DNA of 64,000 nt from an uncultured Candidatus Kuenenia sp. (GCA_964498325.1 CAZCHF010000002.1:76931-140930), one strand, 5' to 3'. Numbered from the stretch's first letter, positions 3,272-50,653 are shown. The notes: a model not told the origin generated them from the letters alone. Numbers and translations are program-made.

Positions 3272-4675
3272 TCAGCCCTTCCATTCGACGCCGAGGATCG
3301 TGATGTCGTCGAGCGGGCCGTTCGGTTGGCACCAGGTCTCGACCTCGTGCAGGAGCCCGGCCACGCTCGGGGCCAGCGGACCGCCACGGGTGCCGTCGAG
3401 GAGCGCCGCCATGCGCTCTTCACCGTAAGCCTCGCGGTCTTTGTCCATCGCTTCGGGCACGCCGTCGGAATACAAGTAAATCCGATCACCGGGCAGGAGC
3501 GTGAGTGAACGCTGTTCGTATTCGACTTCCGGCACGAACGCGATCGGAAACCCCTCCGCTCCATGAAACTCCGGCGGCCCCCCCGCTACGGGAATCCGCA
3601 CGAGGGCCGGATGGCCTCCTGAGACGTAGTCGAGCCGACCGCTTGGCACGTGGAGCACGCCGTAAAGAATCGTGAAGTAAAGCCCGGAGAACTCATCGGC
3701 TTGAAAGAGCCGATTGAGCTGCGTGGCGACCTCAGCCGGCGACGCCACAACCACGCGGCCATCCTGCCCTGGCCGAACGAGAATCGACGAGTCGGACACC
3801 TTCGGCGTCAGAAAGCGACCGACCGTCACCGCCATGAGTGATGATGGAACGCCGTGGCCGCTCACATCGACGACGAAAAGTCCGACGCGCTCCTCATCGA
3901 GTTGAAAAATGTTCAGAAAATCGCCGGCAAGCCCCTGGCAGGGGACGTACCGCCAGGCGATGTCAAGCGACGAAAGCGTCACGTCGTCGGCAGGAAGCAA
4001 CGATCGCTGCACCTTCGCCGCCGCCTCGAGATCGCGAACCATGTGGGCGTTGATCCGCGAGATCTCGGCGTTGAGCGTGACCAATTCCTTGTTGGATCGC
4101 TCGAGGCTGTCGCGGGCCACCGACAGCTCCTGGTTGGCGACCACAAGCTCCTTGTTTTTGGTGACGGCGTTTTCGAACGTCGAGACGAGGAGATTCAGGA
4201 CTTGCTGACGGCCAGCCTTGACCTTGAAGGTTTGCCCAGCGAGCGAGACCTCGAGCGTCGTGCTTGCCGACTCGTCTTCGTCGCCGAGGGGCGTGGCGAG
4301 CAGGGCGGCCATGCGGCCGAGAAGATAGTCAGGCTCGTAGGGCTTCGTGACGTAGTTGTCGGCGCCCGCGTCGAGACCGCGGATGATGTCGACGGGATCG
4401 GAGAGCGTGGAGAGCAGGATGAACGGCACGCTTCGAAGCGCCGGATCCGACTTCACCGCCTTGCAAAAATCGTAGCCCGTCGCCACCGGCATCTCGATAT
4501 CCGAGATGATGATGTCCGGCCGGCGCTCGCGGGCCATGTCGAGGGCGAGGGAACCGTTTTCCGCCCAGCGGACGGCGTGACCGGCGTCCGTAAGCCGCTT
4601 CTGCAGGATCTTCGCCTGCATCCGGCTGTCCTCAGCTATGAGGACATCGACGCCGCCGATCGCCGGGTCAGCCAC
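3272..4675 (-). CDS. Response-regulator receiver domain fused to PP2C/SpoIIE-type serine phosphatase (RsbU-like)
   Basis: N-terminal REC domain (DVLIAEDS...PDIIISDIEMP...K), a coiled-coil linker, and a C-terminal SpoIIE-like region (GDFLNIF...VVDVSGHGVPSSL...LYSDGVPEA...DDITILGV). Confidence 0.85.
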   Translation of the reverse strand: MADPAIGGVDVLIAEDSRMQAKILQKRLTDAGHAVRWAENGSLALDMARERRPDIIISDIEMPVATGYDFCKAVKSDPALRSVPFILLSTLSDPVDIIRGLDAGADNYVTKPYEPDYLLGRMAALLATPLGDEDESASTTLEVSLAGQTFKVKAGRQQVLNLLVSTFENAVTKNKELVVANQELSVARDSLERSNKELVTLNAEISRINAHMVRDLEAAAKVQRSLLPADDVTLSSLDIAWRYVPCQGLAGDFLNIFQLDEERVGLFVVDVSGHGVPSSLMAVTVGRFLTPKVSDSSILVRPGQDGRVVVASPAEVATQLNRLFQADEFSGLYFTILYGVLHVPSGRLDYVSGGHPALVRIPVAGGPPEFHGAEGFPIAFVPEVEYEQRSLTLLPGDRIYLYSDGVPEAMDKDREAYGEERMAALLDGTRGGPLAPSVAGLLHEVETWCQPNGPLDDITILGVEWKG

Positions 4676-38257: not shown

Positions 38258-38494
38258 ATGATGCCGATGCAAACCAGCCATTACATCGATCAGATCGATC
38301 GACACATGGCGCGCGTTCTTGCCTGCACGAGTGAATGTGCGCGGCTTCAAGCTGGTTTTCGGATGTGGACTGCGGCGCGCTCCGTGATCCGGGCCGCGGT
38401 TCTCGCCGATCATGGCGATTGGTCGAGAGAACGCGTCGATCGCGAGGTGGCCGTCCGGCTGAGCAAGGGACTGGTCGCCCGTGTCGTCAACTGA
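38258..38494 (+). CDS. Small protein, partner of the downstream nucleotidyltransferase-fold gene
   Basis: ATGs at 38258, 38261 and 38267 follow AGGA. 14-nt overlap with the downstream gene. Helical sequence ...ARLQAGFRMWTAARSVIRAAVLADHGDWSRERVDREVAVRLSKG. Confidence 0.45.
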   Translation: MMPMQTSHYIDQIDRHMARVLACTSECARLQAGFRMWTAARSVIRAAVLADHGDWSRERVDREVAVRLSKGLVARVVN

Positions 38495-39056
38495 ACTCAA
38501 CCCTGCTGAGTTGATGCAGCGGATGGCCGTCTTCTTGGAGAGCAAGGCCATTCCGTACAGGGTGGTCGGCTCGTTGGCCAGCATGGCCTACGGGGAGCCA
38601 CGTTTCACGAACGACATCGACATTCTTGCCGATGTGCGGCAGGAACACGTAGCGGCTTTGATCGAAGCGTTTCCCGCACCGGAACACTACCTCTCGGAGG
38701 CGGCGATGCGAGCAGCGATTGCGCAGCCGGGACAGTTCAACATCATCCACATCCCGTCCGGGCTCAAACTTGACATGATCGTGCTCGGAACTGACGACTA
38801 CGCACGGACCGAGATCCGACGAGGCCGGCGACTGACGAGCCCGGGCGAGTTCGATGTCTGGTTTGCGGCTCCCGAGGATGTCATTCTCAACAAGCTCATC
38901 TACTACCGCGAGGGCCATTCGGATAAGCACCTTCGCGACATCAGCTCCATGCTCGTCATTCAGCGGGATGCGATCGACCGCGCCTACATCGACTCGTGGG
39001 CCGCGCGCCTTGGTGTGCTCTCCGAATGGCAGACGGTGCTTTCCGGCCTGGAATGA
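38481..39056 (+). CDS. Nucleotidyltransferase-fold protein (MNT/AbiEii-like minimal NTase)
   Basis: NTase signature G-S-x(9)-R-x-T-x-D-I-D (VVGSLASMAYGEPRFTNDIDIL). 191 aa. Confidence 0.65.
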   Translation: MSSTELNPAELMQRMAVFLESKAIPYRVVGSLASMAYGEPRFTNDIDILADVRQEHVAALIEAFPAPEHYLSEAAMRAAIAQPGQFNIIHIPSGLKLDMIVLGTDDYARTEIRRGRRLTSPGEFDVWFAAPEDVILNKLIYYREGHSDKHLRDISSMLVIQRDAIDRAYIDSWAARLGVLSEWQTVLSGLE

Positions 39057-40669: not shown

Positions 40670-41644
40670 ATGCCCAGCATCAAGCGCATTCTCGTCACCG
40701 GCGGGGCCGGATTTTTGGGGAGCCACCTGTGCGAGCGGCTCGTCACCGATGGCCACGACGTCATCTGCGTCGACAACTTTTTCACGAGCCAGAAGTCGAA
40801 CGTGGCCCATCTCCTCGGGCTACCCAACTTCGAGCTCATCCGCCACGACATCATCCAGCCGCTCTTCCTCGAAGTGGACGAGATCTACAACCTCGCCTGC
40901 CCGGCCGCCCCCGGCCATTACCAGTACAACCCCATCAAGACGATGAAGACTTCCGTGATGGGGGCCATCAATCTCCTGGGCATGGCCCGCCGCTGCAGGG
41001 CCAAGATCCTGCAAGCTTCGACGAGCGAGGTCTACGGCGACCCGGAGGTGCACCCGCAGCCCGAGACCTATCGCGGGGCGGTGAATCCCATCGGGCCTCG
41101 GGCCTGCTACGACGAGGGCAAGCGTGCGGCTGAGACCCTGTTCATGGACTATCACCGGCACAACAAGGTGAATGTCCGCATCGTGCGGATCTTCAACACG
41201 TACGGTCCGCGGATGCACCCCTTCGACGGCCGCGTCGTGTCGAACTTCATCCGCCAGGCACTCTCCGGCGAGCCCGTCACGATTTTTGGAAGCGGCAACC
41301 AGACGCGCAGCTTTTGTTATCGCGACGACCTCGTGGAGGGGATCATCCGGATGATGAACGGTCCCGACGACTTCACGGGGCCGGTGAACATCGGCAATCC
41401 CGGCGAGTTCACGATCCGTCAGCTCGCCGAGCTCACGCTCGAACTCACCGGCTCCAAGGCTCCGCTCATCCAAAAGCCTTTGCCCGTGGACGATCCTGAG
41501 CGTCGCAAACCCGACATCACGCTCGCCAAGGAAAAGCTCCAGTGGGAGCCGAAGGTGCCGCTTCGGGAGGGACTCGCCAAGACGATCGCGTGGTTTCGCT
41601 CGGTGAAGCTCGACGAGTTTCGGGCCCCGACGCCCAATTACTGA
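40670..41644 (+). CDS. uxs: UDP-glucuronate decarboxylase (UDP-xylose synthase)
   Basis: Extended SDR: [14 protein letters not shown], ...STSEVYGDP...YDEGKR...[10 protein letters not shown]. Very close to the UXS consensus throughout. Confidence 0.9.
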
Positions 41645-42057
41645 GGCTGGCCAGGCGACCTGCCGAGCAGGCGGCAGGTGATGGCCACCATCGCAATGCC
41701 GCCGATGATGCCGATGACGTCAAAGACCCAATCAAGGGCTTCGGCAGCACGCCCGAAGAGCGGCTGCGTCGATTCATCCACGACCGCCGCCAGAGCGAGG
41801 GCGATGGCCAGGACAATCGCGTTTCGGCGTGACCAGTATCGCGAGGCCGCGAGCGTGGCCGCCATGAGCAAACCGAGAAGACCATAGGCGATGAAGTGGA
41901 GCGCCTTGTCGGACGGTGGGTTCGGTCCGAGGATGTCTTCTGGCTTCGGGTAGTGCGTCGCCCAGACCAGGATCAAGCTGTAGCACGCCGTCAATGCAAA
42001 GCAGGGCCAGAACAACCGCCGCAAGGAAAACGGTTGGGCGGCAGGCATCAGGGGCAA
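41638..42057 (-). CDS. VanZ-like membrane protein
   Basis: Four TM helices. [12 protein letters not shown] and DESTQ motifs typical of the VanZ-like family. Confidence 0.7.
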
Positions 42058-42208
42058 GGTCCGGGGGAGGGGCGGGCGGTGCAGTCTGGAAAAACCCCAT
42101 AATAGCCTCGGTTTTTGATATTCGCCTGCGAGGCCTCAGTCGGTACTTTCCTGCCTTCCGCGGCGGCCTGAGATGACCCGCCCACATGCCCGAGGAGAGT
42201 GCCTACCC

Positions 42209-42475
42209 ATGAACCGTCAGGAACTGTCGGCCGTCGTTCTCAAACTGCTCGAAAAGGAGACCGGCGAGACCTACCCCGATCTCGAAGAGAAGACCACGCT
42301 TCGCGAAGGCTTGAATCTCGACTCGCTCGATATGGCCGGCCTCGTGCTGCACATGGAGAGCCATTTCCAAATCAAGATCGAGACCGAGCTGCTCGAATCG
42401 ATCAACACCGTCGGGAACATGCTCGACGTGCTTGAAGAGAAGCTGGCCGCCAAGGAAGGCCGGAAGGCTGCCTAG
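42209..42475 (+). CDS. Acyl carrier protein
   Basis: Start trimmed to MNRQEL (GAGGAGAG lies ~9 nt upstream). 88 aa, acidic. Phosphopantetheine-attachment motif GLNLDSLDM. Confidence 0.85.
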   Translation: MNRQELSAVVLKLLEKETGETYPDLEEKTTLREGLNLDSLDMAGLVLHMESHFQIKIETELLESINTVGNMLDVLEEKLAAKEGRKAA

Positions 42476-42535
42476 AGTCGGCGGCGATCGTCACACGTCT
42501 GGGGCACGGCCACGGTGCCTGAAGGGGGAGCGAGC

Positions 42536-43375
42536 ATGAAAGACCTGTCACCATCGGCTTTCACGGCCGGATGTCGGATCACCACCCACGCGCTTGTCAA
42601 AGCGCGTCTCTCCGACATGGGGACGCTTCGCAACCGCCCGGCTCCCGAGGGCGTGCCTCCGCTCCCACCGCGGTTCCTGCGGCACTCCGACGAGCACACC
42701 GTCATCGGCATGCATGCGGTGCTGACGGCGCTTGCCGAGGTGCGGGCTCATGACGCCATCCCGCCGCTTGCACGGCATGCCGTGATCGCGGCGCCCTGCC
42801 AGGCCGGGCGGATTGCCACGGCCCAGGCCCTCGCCGGCCTCGACACGTCAGGCCCGAGCGCGATCAAGCCCCACATCGTGCCCCAGTGCTCCATGCATTC
42901 GGTGGCAGGCGCGGTGAGCGTGGCCCTCGGCACGCACGGGCCCCATCTCGGCGTCGGCGGCGGGCCAGATGCGCTCTCCGAGGGGTTCCTGGTGGTGACG
43001 TCACTCTTGGCCAGCGGCGGCGACCCACAGTGTGAAGCAGCCTGGTTGATTGCGACCGAGTGGGACGTCGAGCCGGCGCTCGACTCCAAGGGCATCCCGA
43101 CCGACGATCCTTCCTGCCGCGCGATCGCCATGTTGCTCGAGCCGGCGACCAAGATTGCCGACGGTGATCAAACCGGATCGCTCACGGTCGCCGTCCGCCG
43201 ATCGCGCCAGCGACCGAAAGGGATACGTCCACTGGCCACGCCCTGCACGCTTGCCAACCTGGCTGGTGTCCTCGGCGGGGGAAGTGACGGTCCCGTCACC
43301 CTGCTTGGCTTGGGTGGATTCGAGGTGGAAGTGACGCGGCATGGCCACGAGCAGGTTCTCCGGGAGGCAGCATGA
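42536..43375 (+). CDS. Beta-ketoacyl synthase N-terminal-like protein (Ketoacyl-synt_2 / ApeC-CLF-like, no recognisable C-H-H triad)
   Basis: ATG at 42536 preceded by AAGGGGGAG (the track start is GTG 42515). Segment SMHSVAGAVSVALGTHGPHLGVGGGPDALSEGFLVVTSLL...AAWLIATEWDVEP resembles the thiolase-fold N-terminal half. No downstream His-His region. Stop overlaps the KS start (ATGA). Confidence 0.65.
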   Translation: MKDLSPSAFTAGCRITTHALVKARLSDMGTLRNRPAPEGVPPLPPRFLRHSDEHTVIGMHAVLTALAEVRAHDAIPPLARHAVIAAPCQAGRIATAQALAGLDTSGPSAIKPHIVPQCSMHSVAGAVSVALGTHGPHLGVGGGPDALSEGFLVVTSLLASGGDPQCEAAWLIATEWDVEPALDSKGIPTDDPSCRAIAMLLEPATKIADGDQTGSLTVAVRRSRQRPKGIRPLATPCTLANLAGVLGGGSDGPVTLLGLGGFEVEVTRHGHEQVLREAA

Positions 43376-44607
43376 TCAAGCAGGGGATGAGTCGACGAGA
43401 TACCTGTGAGCCTGTTGTGATCACCGGGGTGGCGGCAGTGACGCCGCTCGGCTGTGATGCCGAGACGATCTTCGGCAACCTTTTTGCCGGTCAATCGGGT
43501 GTCCGCGAGATCGACATCGATCCGCGAGTTCGGACCGACTCGCGGTTCGCCGCGCCGGTGCTCGACATTCCGGTGCCCACGGGCATGGATCCTGACGAGT
43601 TTCGGCGGCTCGGCCGGCTCGAACAACTCTGCCTTCCGTCGGTCGTGGCCACGCTTGCCGACGCGGGCCTCGGATATCCGCAGGCTGCCCCTCGGATCGG
43701 ACTCGTGCTCGGTGTCGGTGGCGAGCACTTCAAAACCTGGGAAGAGGATTTCTTGAGCGGCGGAAGCTTCGTCTTTGAATCCCGCCGCGATCCGACGCTC
43801 GATCAACGGCTGGCCGCCCGCGCCGGCATTGCCGGCCCAACCGTCGCCGTGGCCGCAGCGTGTGCCTCGAGTGGCTACGCCCTGGGGTTGGCTCGAACCT
43901 GGCTCGATGCCGGCTGGGTCGACATCTGCGTCGCCGGTGGGTGCGACGTGTTGGGGCCGACGGCGATTGCAGCCTTCTACAACCTCCGTGCCCTCTCGCG
44001 CCGCAGCGACGACCCCGTAAAAGCCTCGCGGCCTTTCGATCGGGATCGCGATGGCTTTGTGATGGGGGAAGGCGGGGCCTTCTTCGTGCTCGAACGACAG
44101 TCGGATGCCCGTCGCCGTTCGGCGCGGATCCGCTGTGAGCTGGCCGGTATCGGCATGTCGAGTGACGGCGTGCACATGGTGGCGCCCAGCACCGATCCGA
44201 CCCAGGCGGCCCGCGCGATCACCGCGGCACTGGCCGATGCCCAGGTGGAGCCATCAGAAGTCGACTACTTCAATGCCCATGCCGCCGGCACACCGGTCGG
44301 TGACGTGGCCGAGGCTGGCGCGATCCGGATGGCCTGTGGCGATGCGACCGATGCCATTCCGGTGAGCTCGACCAAGAGCATGTCGGGCCATCTCGTGAGC
44401 GGCGCCGCGTCGTTCGAGGCACTGGCTTGTCTGGGCGCGATCGAAAGGCAACAGGTGCCTCCGACGGTAAACCTCGACAACCCCGATCCCGAGTGTCGCC
44501 TCTGCCATGTCCCGCACGTGGCCAAAGCTCATCCCGTGCGCGTCGCCGCCAGCAACTCTTTTGGTTTCGGCGGATCCAATCTTTGTCTTGTCCTTCGCGC
44601 CGCGTGA
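43372..44607 (+). CDS. Beta-ketoacyl-ACP synthase (KAS I/II-type elongating KS)
   Basis: Active-site Cys (VAAACASSGYAL) and two His (FNAHAAGTPVGD; KSMSGHLVSGA). C-terminal NSFGFGGSN. GGGAGG lies ahead of the ATG. Confidence 0.9.
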   Translation: MIKQGMSRRDTCEPVVITGVAAVTPLGCDAETIFGNLFAGQSGVREIDIDPRVRTDSRFAAPVLDIPVPTGMDPDEFRRLGRLEQLCLPSVVATLADAGLGYPQAAPRIGLVLGVGGEHFKTWEEDFLSGGSFVFESRRDPTLDQRLAARAGIAGPTVAVAAACASSGYALGLARTWLDAGWVDICVAGGCDVLGPTAIAAFYNLRALSRRSDDPVKASRPFDRDRDGFVMGEGGAFFVLERQSDARRRSARIRCELAGIGMSSDGVHMVAPSTDPTQAARAITAALADAQVEPSEVDYFNAHAAGTPVGDVAEAGAIRMACGDATDAIPVSSTKSMSGHLVSGAASFEALACLGAIERQQVPPTVNLDNPDPECRLCHVPHVAKAHPVRVAASNSFGFGGSNLCLVLRAA

Positions 44608-44652
44608 CCGGCCGTTTGCCAGCGGACGCTTGTTTCTTTCAGGAGCTCTTCG

Positions 44653-45282
44653 ATGACCTCGACGCACCCGCATCACCCGCCCGTCGCCACGGCCGATCTC
44701 GACGCGCTGCTCTGTGATCTCGTGGCCCGTTGGCATGTCGTCGAGCCCGCCCATGCCGAGGGAGGCCTGCGTGGAAAAGTCTGTGACCTGCATCGATTCA
44801 ACTTTCTCCTCTGGCACGAGGAAGACATCGCCCGCTCGCCCGACGTCACCGACGCGAAGATCGCCCAGGTGAAGCGAGCCATCGACCGCTACAACCAGGC
44901 CCGCAACGACGCGATCGAGAAAGTCGACGACTGGCTCATCGCCGAGCTTTCTGCCCGCGGCATTGCCGCTTCCCAGGGTGCCCCGGCCGCGACCGAAACG
45001 CCGGGCGCCGCCATCGATCGCCTCTCGATCCTCGAGCTTCGCCGCTACCACATGCGGGAGCAGGTGGACCGTGCCGACGCGACGCCAGAGCATCGCGAGA
45101 AGGCCGCCGAGAAACTCGTCGTCCTCGACGCCCAGCGGGATCATCTCGTCGCCGCGATCGACCGGCTCATGTCGGAGATCTTCTCCGGCAAGCGACCGCT
45201 CCGTGTCTTCCGTCAGATGAAGATGTACAACGACCCGACCATGAATCCGTATCTGTACAAGTCGGGCGCCAAGGCCGCATGA
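44653..45282 (+). CDS. DUF4254-like protein
   Basis: 209 aa. ...CDLHRFNFLLWHEEDIAR...IDRLSILELRRYHM...VFRQMKMYNDP. Family name recalled from memory. GGAG lies 7 nt ahead of the ATG. Confidence 0.6.
   Translation: MTSTHPHHPPVATADLDALLCDLVARWHVVEPAHAEGGLRGKVCDLHRFNFLLWHEEDIARSPDVTDAKIAQVKRAIDRYNQARNDAIEKVDDWLIAELSARGIAASQGAPAATETPGAAIDRLSILELRRYHMREQVDRADATPEHREKAAEKLVVLDAQRDHLVAAIDRLMSEIFSGKRPLRVFRQMKMYNDPTMNPYLYKSGAKAA
45129..45282 (+). repeat. Left ~154-bp direct repeat (3' end of the intact DUF4254-like gene)
   Basis: Aligns by eye with 48186-48339. I count about 7 mismatches in the first ~133 nt, with perfect runs of ~50 and ~38 nt. Confidence 0.9.
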
Positions 45283-45353
45283 GGCCACTCCGTGACCGTG
45301 CATGCGTCTCCCGTCGCTGGTTCCTGAACCCGGCTTGGCTCACTGTGGCGTGC

Positions 45354-46040
45354 CTATTCAGCCATTCGACGACGAATTGCATCGGCGACCTGCTTGGCGA
45401 GGAGGCCGCAGCCTTTTCCGGAGAAGTGGACATCGCCCGGCTTCGAGAAGCAGTCGGGCGTGAATTCGGCTGAGAGACTGTGAAGGTCGTTGAACGGTAT
45501 GCCGTGCCGCTCCATGACCTTCAGGGCGACGGCGTTGTATTTCAGCTCATCGCCAGCGTGTCTGCCCGGCTCCCCTTCGGGCACGACCGTCGTCGTCGCG
45601 AAGATGAGCTTCGCGCCGGTCTTTTCGAGCCGCGCCACCAACGCTTCGAGATTCTTCTCGTACTCGTCAAGCGGCACGGAGATGGCTCCGCGAACCTTGT
45701 CGCGGTTCCCCATTTCCTTCGACTCTGGGTGCCGATGGCAGAGATCGTGGAGACCCCAGTTGAAATGGATGACGTCCCACTTCGTGTCACCGAGCCATTC
45801 GTCGAGTCGCTTGAGACCGTTCCGCGTGTCGCCGGCATTGCCTGGGTGGCGCACGACGTTGGCTTCCTTGGCGAGCTCTTTTTGCACGCCCTTGAAATAG
45901 CCCCCCATGATCGAGTCGCCGATCAGCAAGACGTTTATTTCGCCTCCCTGCGCGGCCCCGGCCGCCATCAGCCACGCAGCAAGGCACCAAGCCACGATTT
46001 GCTTCGGCTGCATGACGGATCCGAAAAAGGTGTCAGCCAT
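45354..46040 (-). CDS. SGNH/GDSL-family hydrolase, secreted
   Basis: Signal peptide. Block I LLIGDSIMGG, FNWGLHDL, and C-terminal GDVHFSGKG (D-x-x-H). Confidence 0.8.
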   Translation of the reverse strand: MADTFFGSVMQPKQIVAWCLAAWLMAAGAAQGGEINVLLIGDSIMGGYFKGVQKELAKEANVVRHPGNAGDTRNGLKRLDEWLGDTKWDVIHFNWGLHDLCHRHPESKEMGNRDKVRGAISVPLDEYEKNLEALVARLEKTGAKLIFATTTVVPEGEPGRHAGDELKYNAVALKVMERHGIPFNDLHSLSAEFTPDCFSKPGDVHFSGKGCGLLAKQVADAIRRRMAE

Positions 46041-46815
46041 TCACCTGGCGACGACGAACAACCCGGTGGAGCCCTGCCACCAGGCCGATGGCCGCGGCCG
46101 CGAGGGCAAGCGTCGATGGCTCGGGCACGGCAACGAGTTCAAACGACTGGAGCCCAGCGCTACTGGTCAGCGTCGTGAAACCGACACTGTTGATGCCGTT
46201 GAGGAGGCTCGAGTTCAACGTCCCAGATGTATAGCTGGTCCAGTCAGAAGCGGAAGGGTTCTTGTACAGCGCGGAGAACGTATTGGCCGGCAGGTCGAGC
46301 ACGACTCGCAGGTCGAGCACGTTGCTTTCTCCAGGGATGAAGACCCCAGTGGCACCAGAGGATCCCGAAGCTCCAGTCCCCTGGAAGAAACGGATTTCAT
46401 TGTCACCCCGCCAGAGCATCCAGTAGGTGCCGGTCCCTGCGACATTCCACGCATTGGTGTTTGTCGTTTGGGTCGTCCACCCGATGCCTACCCAATTCGT
46501 GCCAGTCGTGTTGTTGAACACGCGGGCCGTGAGGGTGTAGACCAGGTTTGAGTCAAACGTGGAATACGCCAAATTTGCCGAGCCGCTGCCGCTGCTGTTC
46601 ACGACTCCGGCTGTTGTATCTTTCGTGTAGACGCCAGCGGCTCTCCAGGTCTCTGTACCAGGCCGAACCTGTGGGGCTTGGCCGTTCAAGCCACCATTGG
46701 TGCCACTGGTGAAGTCGTCTGAAAAAATGACCGTCGCCTCGGCGGTACGAGCGCCGGTCAGGGCGGCCAATATCAAGAAGGCCAGGCTTGCAGAGGTCAT
46801 CGAGCGAAGGTTCAT
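46033..46815 (-). CDS. PEP-CTERM-anchored secreted protein (lectin/LamG-like body)
   Basis: Start trimmed to MNLRSMTSASLAFLILAAL (AGGAAGG upstream). C-terminal VPEPSTLALAAAAIGLVAGLHRVVRRRQ sorting signal. Ser/Thr/Gly/Asn-rich, with lower GC than the neighbours. Confidence 0.8.
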   Translation of the reverse strand: MNLRSMTSASLAFLILAALTGARTAEATVIFSDDFTSGTNGGLNGQAPQVRPGTETWRAAGVYTKDTTAGVVNSSGSGSANLAYSTFDSNLVYTLTARVFNNTTGTNWVGIGWTTQTTNTNAWNVAGTGTYWMLWRGDNEIRFFQGTGASGSSGATGVFIPGESNVLDLRVVLDLPANTFSALYKNPSASDWTSYTSGTLNSSLLNGINSVGFTTLTSSAGLQSFELVAVPEPSTLALAAAAIGLVAGLHRVVRRRQVNG

Positions 46816-46987
46816 GTTCCGCCTTCCTTGAGAAACTGCCCGTGAACAAGGCGTTCGCCGCGGGCATTGAATAGGCATTGGCCGAAACGATGTGCACGTC
46901 GGACACTTTTCTTCCGATGATCCGAATACTATCCTCAAGCGGCGGCACAATCTGTTGCTGGCGAGGCAGGATTTGGCATAATCCTGC

Positions 46988-48277
46988 ATGGGTCTCCTGG
47001 GGCAAGCGATGGGCGACGTGAAACGAATCGGCGTGCGGATGGAGCTCGACAAGCCGTTCAAACGGCATGTGGCCTTGTTCGGCGGGATTCGCGAATACGC
47101 CGAGCGTCACCCCGATTGGCAGCTCGTGGTGGACGAGTGGGTCGACCACTCGCTGCCTGCCAGAAGGGGCATAACCGTTCCCTACGACGGCATCATTGGC
47201 CGGCTCACGCCGCTGGCCGCCGAGCGTGCCAAACGCCATGATCTGCCGGCGGTGAACATCTGGCTGTCGTCGCCGGCCAAGGGTTTGCCGGGCGTGTATT
47301 CCGACGCGACCGCCAGCGGCAAACTCGTGGCGGAACATCTCCTGAACCGCGGGTTTCGGTATCTCGCCGCGCTTCTGCAAGATGACGACATCGGCACCGA
47401 CCTCCAGGCCAAAGCCATGAAGGCGTATGCCGAGGAGTTTGGGTACGAGGGGTGGCTCGGCACGGTGTCGCTTGCCGAGTGCACGACCCATGCCGAATGG
47501 CAGCTCCTGCTCGACACAGTCAAACGGTGGATGGATTCATGGAAACTACCGCTCGGGTTACTCATCCGTGATCCTTCATGGGCCCGGGCGATCGTCGAAC
47601 TGGCGAAGCAACGTGGATGGAACGTGCCCGAACAAATCGCGATCGTGGCCACCCACAACGACGAGATCCACTGCGAGTACCCCGAGCCCGGCCTGACGGC
47701 CGTCGAATTCGCCGAGAAGCAGCAAGGCTATGACGCGGCGAAAATGCTCGATGAACTCATCGAAGCCAAGCGCAAGGGAGCCTCGCCGTTTGCCGATCCG
47801 AAGAACGTCTATGTGCCACCCGTCGGCCTTGTGGCACGGCATTCGACTGATTTTTTCGCCGTGAGTGACCCGCTGGTAGGACAGGCGCTTCGCTTCATCG
47901 CCGCCCAGCTCCACAAGCCCTTGAGCGCGCCGAAAGTGGCCCGTGCCTTGGGCGTGGCCCGCCGCACGCTCGACGCCTGGTTTCAGAAATCACTCGGCCT
48001 GACCGTGGCCGACGAGATCAACCGCCTCCGCATCGAACGCGTGAAGCGCGAACTGATGGCGAGCCAAGACTCGATTGCCGTCATCGCCAAGCGCACCGGC
48101 TTCGCGAGCCTTCGCACACTCCGCGATCAGTTTCAGCGTAGCGTCGGCATGTCGCCCACGGCGTTTCGCGAGCAAGCCGTCGCGACGCCCGGCGCGATCA
48201 TCTCGTCGCCGCGACCGACCAACTCATGTCGGAGATCTTCTCCGGCAAGCGACCGCTCCGTGTCTTCCGTCACATGA
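46988..48277 (+). CDS. XylR-like regulator (periplasmic-binding-protein-like sensor + AraC-type HTH)
   Basis: KRIGVRMELDKPFKRH... sugar-binding-like N-terminal region. C-terminal AraC HTH (...IAVIAKRTGFASLRTLRDQFQRSVGMSPTAFRE). An alternative start is at 47009. The last ~29 codons are read from the right direct repeat in a shifted frame. Confidence 0.8.
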   Translation: MGLLGQAMGDVKRIGVRMELDKPFKRHVALFGGIREYAERHPDWQLVVDEWVDHSLPARRGITVPYDGIIGRLTPLAAERAKRHDLPAVNIWLSSPAKGLPGVYSDATASGKLVAEHLLNRGFRYLAALLQDDDIGTDLQAKAMKAYAEEFGYEGWLGTVSLAECTTHAEWQLLLDTVKRWMDSWKLPLGLLIRDPSWARAIVELAKQRGWNVPEQIAIVATHNDEIHCEYPEPGLTAVEFAEKQQGYDAAKMLDELIEAKRKGASPFADPKNVYVPPVGLVARHSTDFFAVSDPLVGQALRFIAAQLHKPLSAPKVARALGVARRTLDAWFQKSLGLTVADEINRLRIERVKRELMASQDSIAVIAKRTGFASLRTLRDQFQRSVGMSPTAFREQAVATPGAIISSPRPTNSCRRSSPASDRSVSSVT

Positions 48278-48339
48278 AGATGTACAACGACCCGACCATG
48301 AATCCGTATCTCTACAAGGCCGCGTCGAAGGCTGCCTAA
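48186..48339 (+). pseudogene. Right direct repeat: orphan 3' fragment of a DUF4254-like gene
   Basis: In its own frame it encodes RDHLVAATDQLMSEIFSGKRPLRVFRHMKMYNDPTMNPYLYKAASKAA-stop. The intact gene has RDHLVAAIDRLMSEIFSGKRPLRVFRQMKMYNDPTMNPYLYKSGAKAA-stop. The frame has an upstream stop at 48139-48141 and no start codon. Confidence 0.8.
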
Positions 48340-48379
48340 GCCTGGATCGAGCGAGCGTGTCACATCGGCGCGAGCCCAC

Positions 48380-49516
48380 TCAGTCCTTCAGTTCTTTGAC
48401 GGCTGACGTTGGAACCCACTCGTCCCACTCCGTCGAGTAGCCGTCGTAGTGAACCTTGTGCATCCCGAACTGGGAAGCAAGGACCGTGCCGCGATACCAC
48501 GTCTTGTCCTTGGGCCACAGCACGTTCACGCGCGTGCCATTGGCAAACGTTGTGACGCGCGGCTTGCGGAGTCGATCTTCGCCGACCCATTCGTTCCACG
48601 TGTCGTCGTAGCCAAGGTAATGGACCTGTGACGAGCCGCCGTCAACGTCGATCACCTGGGCCGGGTACCACGAACCTTTCCACTCGACCTCGACCCGGCG
48701 TCCAAGGCCGTCTTCCGGTTCGCCGTCGGTGTCCGCAATTGCCATGTCCGCGTCAAAATCATCGGTGGCGATGAACATGGCCTTTTGGTGCTCGACGTAG
48801 GCCATCGCTTCTTCGGTGTAGGTCGCGAGCTCGCGAAGCTCTACTTCGCCGTCAGCGTCGGTGTCCACCAAGGGGCTGCCCTGAAATCCGGCGATGAGCG
48901 ACTCGGTGAACGTCCAGTTGCCGGTCGACGAGTTGTGGGAATACGAGCTCGTCAGGCACGCGCATGCTAGGTCGTCGCGATGCTTCGCTGCTTCATCATG
49001 GAGTGCGCCCGAGTGGCAGCAATCCGCCATGAAGATCACCTCGTCGCCACTGAAGCGGTCCAGGACCGTGGAGAATATCTCCTTCACCGGCCAGTGGCTC
49101 GCGTAGCTTTCGCCCGCGTCGTAGTTGGCGAAGTAGGTCTGGCCTGTCTTTCGATCACGGCTGCCGTGGCCGGCGAAATAAACGATGAGAAGATCGCCCT
49201 TGTCGGTGCGGTCGAGTTGGCGCTTGAACCGTTGACGGATCGAGGCGAGTGTCGCTTCTTCGTCGGCGAGAAACACGACGTGATCGTCGGGCACACCGGC
49301 GGCCTCGAGCACCTTGACGAGACGCCGATCCGCGCGATTCGGCATGGCGTCAGGAAACGAGGCATAGATCTCTTCGTGTTCCCACTCGAGAATGCCGACG
49401 GCAAACACCCACGTACGCTCCGGATCCCAGCCGATCTCGGCGTGGGCTGCGGCCGAGAGAAGCACGAACAGGGCGACACTCGAGAACGAAATCCTCCACG
49501 TGACCATACGAGACAT
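48380..49516 (-). CDS. Secreted caspase-fold (peptidase C14-like) protein with two C-terminal Tudor/Agenet-like domains
   Basis: Start trimmed to MSRMVTWRISFSSVALFVLLSAAAHA. His-Cys dyad context YFAGHGS and FMADCCHSG. Two ~45-aa repeats (VEVEWKGSWYPAQVIDVD...VHYLGYDDTWNEWV; VNVLWPKDKTWYRGTVLAS...VHYDGYSTEWDEWV). Confidence 0.75.
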   Translation of the reverse strand: MSRMVTWRISFSSVALFVLLSAAAHAEIGWDPERTWVFAVGILEWEHEEIYASFPDAMPNRADRRLVKVLEAAGVPDDHVVFLADEEATLASIRQRFKRQLDRTDKGDLLIVYFAGHGSRDRKTGQTYFANYDAGESYASHWPVKEIFSTVLDRFSGDEVIFMADCCHSGALHDEAAKHRDDLACACLTSSYSHNSSTGNWTFTESLIAGFQGSPLVDTDADGEVELRELATYTEEAMAYVEHQKAMFIATDDFDADMAIADTDGEPEDGLGRRVEVEWKGSWYPAQVIDVDGGSSQVHYLGYDDTWNEWVGEDRLRKPRVTTFANGTRVNVLWPKDKTWYRGTVLASQFGMHKVHYDGYSTEWDEWVPTSAVKELKD

Positions 49517-49555
49517 GCCCGTTGCCTCCGCGACCAGCACGCTGGGATCGGTGAG

Positions 49556-50653
49556 TCACTCAATACAGTTGGCGAGCGCCAACAGGGCGTACGAGGTCAC
49601 GAGGACCGGCTCACCTTCGAGCCAGCGCTCGTTGGGGTTCGTCCACGAGCCATCCGGCTTCTGCCGCGAGACGATGGCCGTCGTGAGCTCGTCTCGCCAC
49701 ACATGCTTCTTGCCGTCGGCGTCGGTAAAGGTGTCTTCACCGAGTACGGCAAGTGCCTTCGAGGCCGTGTGATAGAAGTAGTAAAGGCCTGCCTGGCCCA
49801 TGCCGGGGTTTTCGTCGAACGAATAGTTCTTGCCCAGCCATTCGATGGCGGCCTTCACCCGCGGATCTTCTTTCGTCAGCCCGGCGAAGATCATGCTCTT
49901 GAGGCCGGCATAAGTCATCGAGGCATAGCTGCGCAGTCCGCCGTTTTCGGTCGTCCCAGCCTGGCTCTCGCCTCCGGCCGCAGGCGTGTAGTAAAAGCCG
50001 CCGTCCGGGTTCTTCTCAGGAAACGGAAGCGGGTTGTGAGGCCCAGGCAGATTCTGGGTTCGCGATACGAACTCGAGCGCCTTCTGGATCGCCGGATCGT
50101 TTTCACTTTCGCCGACGGTGCGCAGGGCCTCGATCATGAACTGGGTGTTCGAAAGATCGGGCCGCGACTTCTTGCCGTAGCCGGCGCCGCCGTAGGCCGG
50201 GTCGTTCTTGTCCTTGCCCTCGTCTTCGTCCCACTGGAGTTTCTTGACGAACGCCGTCGCTCCCTTGATCTCCTTGTCGAGTGAGCCGTTTTTGTTACAG
50301 GCCGCGAGAGCGAGCATGGCGATCGACGTCTCGTAATTGGCCACCGGCGACCCGGGCGAATAGATTCCGCCGTCAGGCTGACGGAACGTCATGAGATACT
50401 CGAGCCCCTTCTTCACGACGGGGGCATCGGCCGGTGTTCCGCTTCGCACGATCGCCGTGAGCGTCAGCGCCGTGACGGCGGGGCCCAACTCATTCTTGAA
50501 GCTGCCGTTCTCTTGCTGACAGCCTTCGAGGAATTTCGTGGCCTTCGCGATGGCCTCCTGCACCTTCTCCTTGTCGGCGGCATGGCTCGTGAGGGCCATG
50601 GCCAGCATGGCGGTCGAAACAGCAACGGCGAGGGCGACGCGAAGGAGTTTCAT
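49556..50653 (-). CDS. Secreted prenyltransferase/squalene-oxidase-repeat (alpha-alpha toroid) protein
   Basis: Signal peptide. Repeated QxxDGGW/F-type motifs (RQPDGGIYS, NPDGGFYY, QKPDGSWTN). Confidence 0.7.
   Translation of the reverse strand: MKLLRVALAVAVSTAMLAMALTSHAADKEKVQEAIAKATKFLEGCQQENGSFKNELGPAVTALTLTAIVRSGTPADAPVVKKGLEYLMTFRQPDGGIYSPGSPVANYETSIAMLALAACNKNGSLDKEIKGATAFVKKLQWDEDEGKDKNDPAYGGAGYGKKSRPDLSNTQFMIEALRTVGESENDPAIQKALEFVSRTQNLPGPHNPLPFPEKNPDGGFYYTPAAGGESQAGTTENGGLRSYASMTYAGLKSMIFAGLTKEDPRVKAAIEWLGKNYSFDENPGMGQAGLYYFYHTASKALAVLGEDTFTDADGKKHVWRDELTTAIVSRQKPDGSWTNPNERWLEGEPVLVTSYALLALANCIE

Follow-up and report, generated by a model that had tools for sequence, protein, structure and literature searches.

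A displaced DUF4254 gene end in an uncultured Candidatus Kuenenia sp.: a probable insertion-duplication scar at a small genomic islet

In a 64,000-nt stretch of DNA from an uncultured Candidatus Kuenenia sp. (GCA_964498325.1, CAZCHF010000002.1:76931-140930; one strand, counted from its first letter and called the window below), an intact gene of the DUF4254 family is separated by a 3-kb segment from a second copy of its own 3′ end. A first-pass annotation, made from the sequence alone, had described this recurrence as about 154 nt long; a repeat search of the window placed it in a 158-nt direct-repeat family with 90% identity and a spacing of 3,057 nt, the only such family joining the two intervals and one with just two copies in the window (Table 1). 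Pairwise alignment agrees with the 158-nt repeat, and similarity ends within a few bases of both stop codons. The two copies share an identical 50-nt core that has no further occurrence in the window (0 matches expected, 100 shuffles). Compared in frame over 156 nt (45127-45282 against 48184-48339), the copies differ at 16 positions, 7 of them in the first 135 nt, much as had been counted by eye (about 7 in the first ~133 nt), and 9 in the last 21 nt, so that mismatches are far denser in the last seven codons than before them (9/21 against 7/135 nt; Fisher p = 1.6e-5). Two blocks match perfectly between the copies, one of 50 nt and one of 38 nt; both fall on the codons of DUF4254 that are conserved best, and other species have them unchanged as well. 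A common dispersed repeat, which the first-pass annotation had named as an alternative, was rejected: there are two copies in the window, and a single DUF4254 end was found at each of 80 + 10 related loci.

Table 1. Features of the DUF4254 locus (positions in the window).
Feature	Position	Strand	Remarks
DUF4254 gene	44653-45282	+	Intact, 209 amino acids; Pfam PF14063, E = 7.5e-52; left conserved flank of the hotspot
Left repeat copy	45126-45283	+	Working DUF4254 3′ end, codons 158-209 plus stop
Left copy, near-identical segment	45127-45261	+	
Left copy, tail	45262-45282	+	SGAKAA tail allele
Inserted cargo	45284-48182		70-nt spacer, SGNH/GDSL gene, PEP-CTERM gene, divergent promoter region of ~170-190 nt, conserved body of the regulator
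GDSL/SGNH hydrolase (esterase) gene	45354-46040	-	Pfam
PEP-CTERM secreted-protein gene	46033-46815	-	Pfam, PEP-CTERM motif
XylR/AraC-type regulator gene (Peripla_BP_3 + HTH_18)	46988-48277	+	Pfam; NCBI start 47009
Right repeat copy	48183-48340	+	Displaced, orphan original DUF4254 3′ end; AASKAA tail; own TAA
Caspase (Peptidase_C14) + Tudor/Agenet gene	48380-49540	-	Pfam; older resident cargo of the hotspot
SQHop-like gene (squalene-hopene-cyclase-like / prenyltransferase-fold)	49556-50653	-	Pfam; right conserved flank of the hotspot

Between the repeats lie genes for an SGNH hydrolase, a PEP-CTERM protein and a XylR-type regulator, and Pfam supports all three of these earlier assignments. The PEP-CTERM protein had also been called lectin-like and lower in GC; its Pfam match is to the motif alone, which leaves the lectin-like part unconfirmed, and the lower GC holds but is mild (GC 0.598; GC at third codon positions, GC3, z = -2.1). 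Apart from this GC3 value, all cargo genes fall within ~1.5 standard deviations of the window genes, and this host-like composition made a compositional test for foreign origin uninformative.

The regulator carries one edge of the insert inside its reading frame. Its conserved part ends at about residue 396 and the repeat begins at residue 399. In an alignment of 20 homologues, members of the family end 4-25 residues after an FRE motif and their tails are unconserved. Since the repeat in the window starts three codons past FRE, the last conserved motif, the last 31 codons (48183-48277) are repeat-derived and read in a shifted frame; the first-pass annotation had recognized this foreign tail, at about 29 codons. 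DNA homology of the regulator gene to its closest relative (L081) stops at 48169. The protein retains all family-invariant residues and is probably functional with its 31-residue foreign tail.

The right copy of the repeat had been described as a startless orphan with its own stop. It does end in a TAA (48337-48339) and encodes ...RDHLVAATDQLMSEIFSGKRPLRVFRHMKMYNDPTMNPYLYKAASKAA; its frame is closed by a stop 15 codons upstream of the repeat, and it is not covered by any open reading frame (ORF) of at least 60 amino acids, which together mark it as an orphan fragment. In a codon-by-codon comparison of both copies with 19 DUF4254 orthologues, the left copy retained every residue that is invariant in the 19. 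The right copy, besides I11T, has three substitutions, Q3R, R13Q (through two nucleotide changes) and Q30H, at positions where Q3 and Q30 are invariant in 19/19 orthologues and R13 is present in 18/19. Having changed at conserved residues, it is therefore no longer selected as DUF4254, and its codons identify it as a decaying pseudogene fragment with inactivating substitutions.

Comparison with relatives gives the two copies a polarity. A scan of species-representative genomes yielded 80 DUF4254 loci, the nearest from freshwater Pirellulales metagenome-assembled genomes with ~76-84% protein identity, and closer relatives, including L082, were taken from the protein database. At six of the representative-genome loci a UDP-xylose-synthase-like gene, VanZ, acyl carrier protein (ACP), a ketoacyl-synthase-like (KS-like) gene, ketoacyl synthase (KS) and DUF4254 are followed directly by the convergent SQHop-like gene, where synteny of the window with its relatives also resumes and continues to ~56670 (tblastn, tblastx). 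Relative to these six species the window holds 4.3 kb of extra DNA (45283-49555), including the caspase-Tudor gene, which none of the six has. In L082, the closest relative found (DUF4254 89% identical), the caspase-Tudor gene lies 8 nt downstream of DUF4254 on the opposite strand, and the gene in the window, in the same position and orientation, is 75-76% identical to it. L082 thus provides the empty site for which a search had been proposed, with DUF4254 directly followed by the caspase-like gene. By BLASTN, window positions 40925-45293 match L082 1-4365 and positions 48183-49460 match L082 4197-5441 as a single collinear block, so that both map to one continuous stretch of L082 and overlap at 4197-4365. 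Since the right copy and the caspase-Tudor gene align with L082 as one collinear unit, this copy is the displaced original gene end, still in its ancestral context.

On this comparison the inserted DNA comprises 3,057 bp, namely the left copy and the genes for the SGNH esterase, the PEP-CTERM protein and the XylR-type regulator. The proposal of an insertion into the DUF4254 3′ end is borne out, as is the suggestion that the intact terminus was supplied with the element, the left copy having arrived or been created with the insert. That the repeats bracket the extra segment is true against L082 only; against the six empty-site species the right repeat lies inside the variable region rather than at its outer edge. 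The cargo (45284-48182) has no match at this site in the 80 DUF4254 loci, in L082-L086 or in L170-L173. Decay of the right copy amounts to ~4% over 135 nt, whereas third positions have diverged from L082 by ~30%, so that the event would, as a rough estimate, have occurred well after the split from L082.

The repeat itself is a mosaic. Over codons 1-45, third positions are identical between the two copies at 41/45 sites, against 27-32/45 when either copy is compared with the nearest relatives, and both copies carry states in common that L082 and L083 do not have; over this 135-nt segment they are sister sequences. The tails have different affinities. The SGAKAA tail of the left copy is identical at 20/21 nt to the TGAKAA tail of L085 (that of L082 is also TGAKAA and differs from L085 synonymously only), and the AASKAA tail of the right copy has the same peptide as L170/P0109, with nucleotide differences that are synonymous only. 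The last seven codons are therefore two distinct natural alleles, which indicates that two alleles of the site were joined and that the repeat was not made by copying one sequence. The conserved 135 nt would then come either from near-identical (conspecific) parents or from later homogenization by gene conversion.

In this six-residue C-terminal tail (45262-45282 and 48319-48339 in the window; also L082, L085, L170 and L171), at least two alleles can be told apart, T/S-GAKAA and A/T-ASKAA, whose peptides are conserved although their synonymous sites are saturated. Their distribution departs from the phylogeny of the remaining gene, suggesting that recombination has had breakpoints where the conserved coding region of DUF4254 ends.

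Across relatives, the interval that separates DUF4254 from the convergent SQHop-like gene behaves as a recombination hotspot for small unrelated cargos. Seven occupancy states, including empty, were seen, and relatives show at least six contents other than that of the window. The interval is empty in L002, L005, L007, L008, L011, L017 and L171, and is filled by the caspase-Tudor gene with three small ORFs in L082, a 468-amino-acid ORF in L083, a PATR/PEP-CTERM protein gene in L085 and L086, an AbiEii/AbiEi toxin-antitoxin pair in L170, and a TPR-like ORF in L173. No second DUF4254 end was found at any of these relatives' loci, so that cargos are normally replaced with no duplication, a pattern from which the window departs, and no mobility genes occur among the relatives' cargos.

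Mobility machinery is likewise absent from the window. Pfam scans of ~50 ORFs across the whole 64 kb, several of which had no Pfam match, revealed no integrase, excisionase, resolvase or transposase, and no tRNA, tmRNA or Rfam family was found in the 64 kb; the first-pass annotation had already remarked on the lack of an integrase, excisionase or tRNA. Terminator/promoter, Rfam and tRNA scans at the junctions returned nothing relevant. There are no noteworthy terminal inverted repeats, the only one touching the ends being 27 nt long with 74% complementarity. The locus does not fit insertion by an insertion sequence or transposon, as there is no transposase and the duplication measures 158 bp against the 2-14 bp expected of a target-site duplication.

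Nor was the cargo encountered as a recurrent cassette. The nearest XylR homologue (L081, 79% identical) lies in another genome beside a SASA/GDSL esterase gene and PSCyt2/DUF1501 genes, with no DUF4254-like sequence. A scan of metagenome contigs with the SGNH protein gave 80 loci at no more than 66% identity, none of which adjoins DUF4254, XylR or PEP-CTERM homologues, and a degenerate DNA pattern for the lineage-specific MSEIFSGK...VFR block, used to seek conspecific filled, empty or donor sites, had 0 matches in metagenome contigs. An exact-sequence search with the DUF4254 and XylR proteins of the window returned no record. The regulators of L081, L087 and L089 (Peripla_BP_3 + HTH_18) are repeatedly found beside SASA/GDSL-type esterases, PEP-CTERM or Laminin_G_3 (LamG) proteins, and sulfatases. 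These contexts contain neither the same cassette nor a DUF4254 sequence. The association of regulator, SASA/GDSL esterase and PEP-CTERM/LamG protein suggests a functional rather than a mobile module, possibly a regulon for the deacetylation or processing of a glycan.

We interpret the locus as the product of a recombinase-independent insertion-duplication that stacked two hotspot alleles, and hence as a recombination scar rather than a working device, and we assign this reading a probability of roughly 0.6. The ancestor, in a freshwater Pirellulales clade, would have carried a DUF4254 gene with the AASKAA tail followed by the caspase-Tudor gene, in the DUF4254/caspase order seen in L082. The donor would have been DNA of a close relative with the other hotspot allele, that is, a DUF4254 end with the SGAKAA tail, the SGNH esterase, the PEP-CTERM protein and the XylR regulator. 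Recombination through the conserved last ~135 nt of DUF4254 may have taken either of two routes: a RecA-type single crossover with a circularized fragment (Campbell-type insertion-duplication), or a homologous crossover at one end coupled to an illegitimate join of the regulator's 3′ tail to DUF4254 at about codon 158. Either way the new allele would have been stacked upstream of the old one, adding 3,057 bp and creating the 158-bp direct duplication. DUF4254 would have been kept intact through the left copy, the old end, now the right copy, would have been orphaned and then substituted, and the regulator, deprived of its native stop, would have been extended by 31 codons read out of frame. 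Recombination between the two copies, which retain perfect matches over 50 and 38 nt, could still remove the cargo; like the donor and the exact pathway, this step is inferred.

Both routes have precedents. In E. coli, with homology at one end only, single crossovers of circular molecules outnumbered true homology-facilitated illegitimate recombination (HFIR) and duplicated 109-950 bp of the homologous locus, and the junctions of true HFIR had 3-10 bp of microhomology (PMC3240628). Displacement of the HFIR type, leaving orphan 3′ ends, has been proposed for type VI secretion system (T6SS) and Rhs arrays (PMC5361080). The resemblance between the codons for FREQAV in XylR and HREKAA in DUF4254 (45093-45111 against 48163-48182; 13-14 of 16-18 nt) was considered as part of the repeat and rejected, since FREQ is native to the XylR family. 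It is probably coincidental, and could have aided an illegitimate join.

Several observations weigh against the insertion-duplication reading. The donor arrangement it postulates (DUF4254, SGNH, PEP-CTERM and XylR without a relic) was not found in the genome, metagenome and protein collections, perhaps because it is unsampled. The microhomology near the junction (CGTCG/TCG, 3-5 nt) is too short to be told from chance in DNA of 63% GC. A near-identical 135-nt segment beside diverged tails needs an extra assumption, either a conspecific donor or gene conversion, and the order of the two cargo acquisitions is drawn from one relative only. Finally, a gene-end duplication that restores the frame is the classic signature of site-specific integration, as for e14 in icd (PMC13626634), and a recombinase could lie outside the 64 kb.

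This last point is the starting position of the first-pass annotation, which had compared the repeats with attL and attR. In the form that would fit the window, another part of the genome would encode a tyrosine or serine recombinase, and this enzyme, acting in trans, would have integrated a small cassette whose attP contained a copy of the DUF4254 3′ end at an attB in DUF4254. Gene-3′-end direct repeats flank the insert, DUF4254 is restored and the displaced end is a pseudogene, much as icd and icdC lie around e14 (PMC13626634); L082 offers an empty site, and the DUF4254 end is a hotspot for other cargos as well. The identical 50- and 38-nt blocks would suit attachment sites, but they are the most conserved codons, identical in other species too, and need no att function, and a mosaic of this kind is unlike an att core with a diverged arm. 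The other cargos at the site lack a duplicated gene end, the cassette was not found elsewhere, the right-hand junction crosses the regulator ORF and does not look like the clean end of an element, and the cargo consists of ordinary regulon genes of host-like composition. Together with the absence of a recombinase, excisionase or tRNA from the insert and the 64 kb, these features leave the attL/attR reading unsupported and site-specific integration in trans unlikely, though the latter retains some weight. A more far-reaching variant, which we regard as distinctly doubtful, is that the DUF4254 3′ end serves as the attachment site of an unrecognized class of small recombinase-less cassettes that use a gene-end copy as their handle and are moved in trans. 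If true, this would account for the presence of six or more unrelated cargos (caspase-Tudor, AbiE toxin-antitoxin, PEP-CTERM and hypothetical proteins among them) at exactly this spot in related Pirellulales, and the window would show two tandem cassettes whose att duplication can still be seen.

The order of events could also be reversed, with the SGNH/PEP-CTERM/XylR block and an SGAKAA-tailed DUF4254 as residents and the caspase-Tudor gene as a later arrival from an L082-like donor, which would have dragged along the 158-bp end of its own DUF4254, with homology in the SQHop-like gene as the anchor on one side and an illegitimate join in the regulator tail on the other. The SGAKAA/TGAKAA tail is indeed that of the closest relatives (P0100, P0101, P0103), AASKAA belonging to a more distant 84% group, and the caspase-Tudor gene is 75% identical to that of L082 against 88-94% for the flanking genes. 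We nevertheless consider this order improbable, because the first 135 nt of the passenger would have to nearly equal the resident at synonymous sites (41/45), which is not expected from a donor that distant, and because the adjacency of a DUF4254 end and the caspase gene, common to the closest relative, is more simply ancestral. An assembly artefact, in which a metagenome assembler concatenated two strain variants of the hotspot through their common DUF4254 end, deserves mention in that nearly all relatives are metagenome-assembled genomes, the site is polymorphic between lineages and the species-representative collection did not yield the genome of the window itself; yet the XylR/repeat junction shares 3-5 nt, far below any assembly k-mer, and the right copy is changed at residues kept in 18-19 of 19 orthologues, which is not expected of a second strain's functional allele, so that we hold an artefact to be very improbable. 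Least credible is the option, listed in the first-pass annotation, that the DUF4254 region was duplicated in tandem in situ and then underwent deletions. It would account for the copies being each other's closest relatives over 135 nt, but the 9 differences in the last 21 nt correspond to two natural tail alleles, on which ground it was rejected, and the 3-kb interior is found in no relative and thus did not come from duplicating local sequence.

Insertion-duplication at a replacement-type genomic islet is a known kind of event, and the locus calls for no new mechanism or system. As in the single-crossover (Campbell-type, RecA-dependent) and HFIR events described in E. coli, foreign DNA sits within a short direct duplication of the recipient locus (158 bp here against 109-950 bp; PMC3240628), no dedicated recombinase is needed, the insert measures ~1-3 kb, and one junction is homologous while the other appears to link unrelated DNA with at most slight microhomology. 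An unoccupied site, as expected after such an event, exists in a relative (L082), and the displaced copy in the window lies in its ancestral context. Those were laboratory events with known donors, whereas here the pathway is read from the scar; classical HFIR, moreover, usually deletes recipient DNA and makes no duplication, and the diverged tails of the window need a donor with another allele of the same locus.

Other systems share part of this architecture. Element e14 and phage 21 in the E. coli icd gene likewise integrate into the 3′ end of a protein gene, the insert supplies a new end, the original end is kept on its far side as a C-terminal pseudogene (icdC), and recombination between the copies regenerates a chimeric gene (PMC13626634). 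However, e14 is a prophage of 15 kb that encodes both an integrase and an excisionase and has a defined att core, whereas the insert in the window amounts to 3 kb of regulon genes, one of its junctions cuts a gene's reading frame, and no recombinase was found in the 64 kb. In Rhs, contact-dependent inhibition (CDI) and T6SS effector-immunity arrays, homology is similarly provided by a conserved coding segment upstream, the incoming module has a variable 3′ end of its own, and the old 3′ end is pushed back with its downstream gene as an orphan that keeps some conserved sequence (PMC5361080). In contrast, the variable tail of DUF4254 spans ~6 residues and contains no toxin domain, the downstream genes are not immunity genes, and there is one stacking event only, relatives showing replacement and no arrays. 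Replacement-type flexible genomic islets, finally, resemble the locus in having unrelated cargos between the same conserved convergent genes of close lineages without mobility genes, but a double crossover in the flanks leaves no duplication, and the window has two alleles in tandem.

The surrounding genes add some context. The order of 40670-45282 is conserved and consists of a UDP-xylose-synthase-like epimerase, VanZ (on the opposite strand), acyl carrier protein, a KS-like protein without a Pfam match, beta-ketoacyl synthase and DUF4254. In L001-L019, L082-L086 and L170-L172, DUF4254 is syntenic and always closes this cluster as its last gene after ACP, KS-like and KS, which hints that it may work with an ACP/KS lipid or polyketide pathway. 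The label "cell division protein FtsB" that JGI gives to some DUF4254 members is an apparent mis-annotation. The caspase-Tudor protein is secreted-looking and fuses Peptidase_C14 to two Tudor-knot/Agenet-type domains; it has more than 460 homologues (E <= 1e-30), mostly in Planctomycetota, and is accessory at this locus. An ORF of the DUF6036/AbiEii-like nucleotidyltransferase type (38481-39056, + strand), related to toxins of a type IV toxin-antitoxin family, lies 6 kb upstream. In some relatives synteny also breaks right after the SQHop-like gene (L002; L171 7438-13901, with T2SSE ATPase, TPR, AAA and radical-SAM genes), suggesting a second variable spot beyond it.

For annotation, these results mean that 48183-48340 is best recorded as a pseudogene relic, that the last 31 residues of the regulator are non-native and that the caspase-Tudor gene is accessory. 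More generally, the locus offers a natural example of gene-content change without mobile-element machinery, in which the displaced end, the empty site and the out-of-frame tail of the regulator can all still be read. Little is documented about genetic exchange in the Planctomycetota, and the locus adds to the evidence that small islets beside conserved genes are shuffled there by homologous recombination between lineages.

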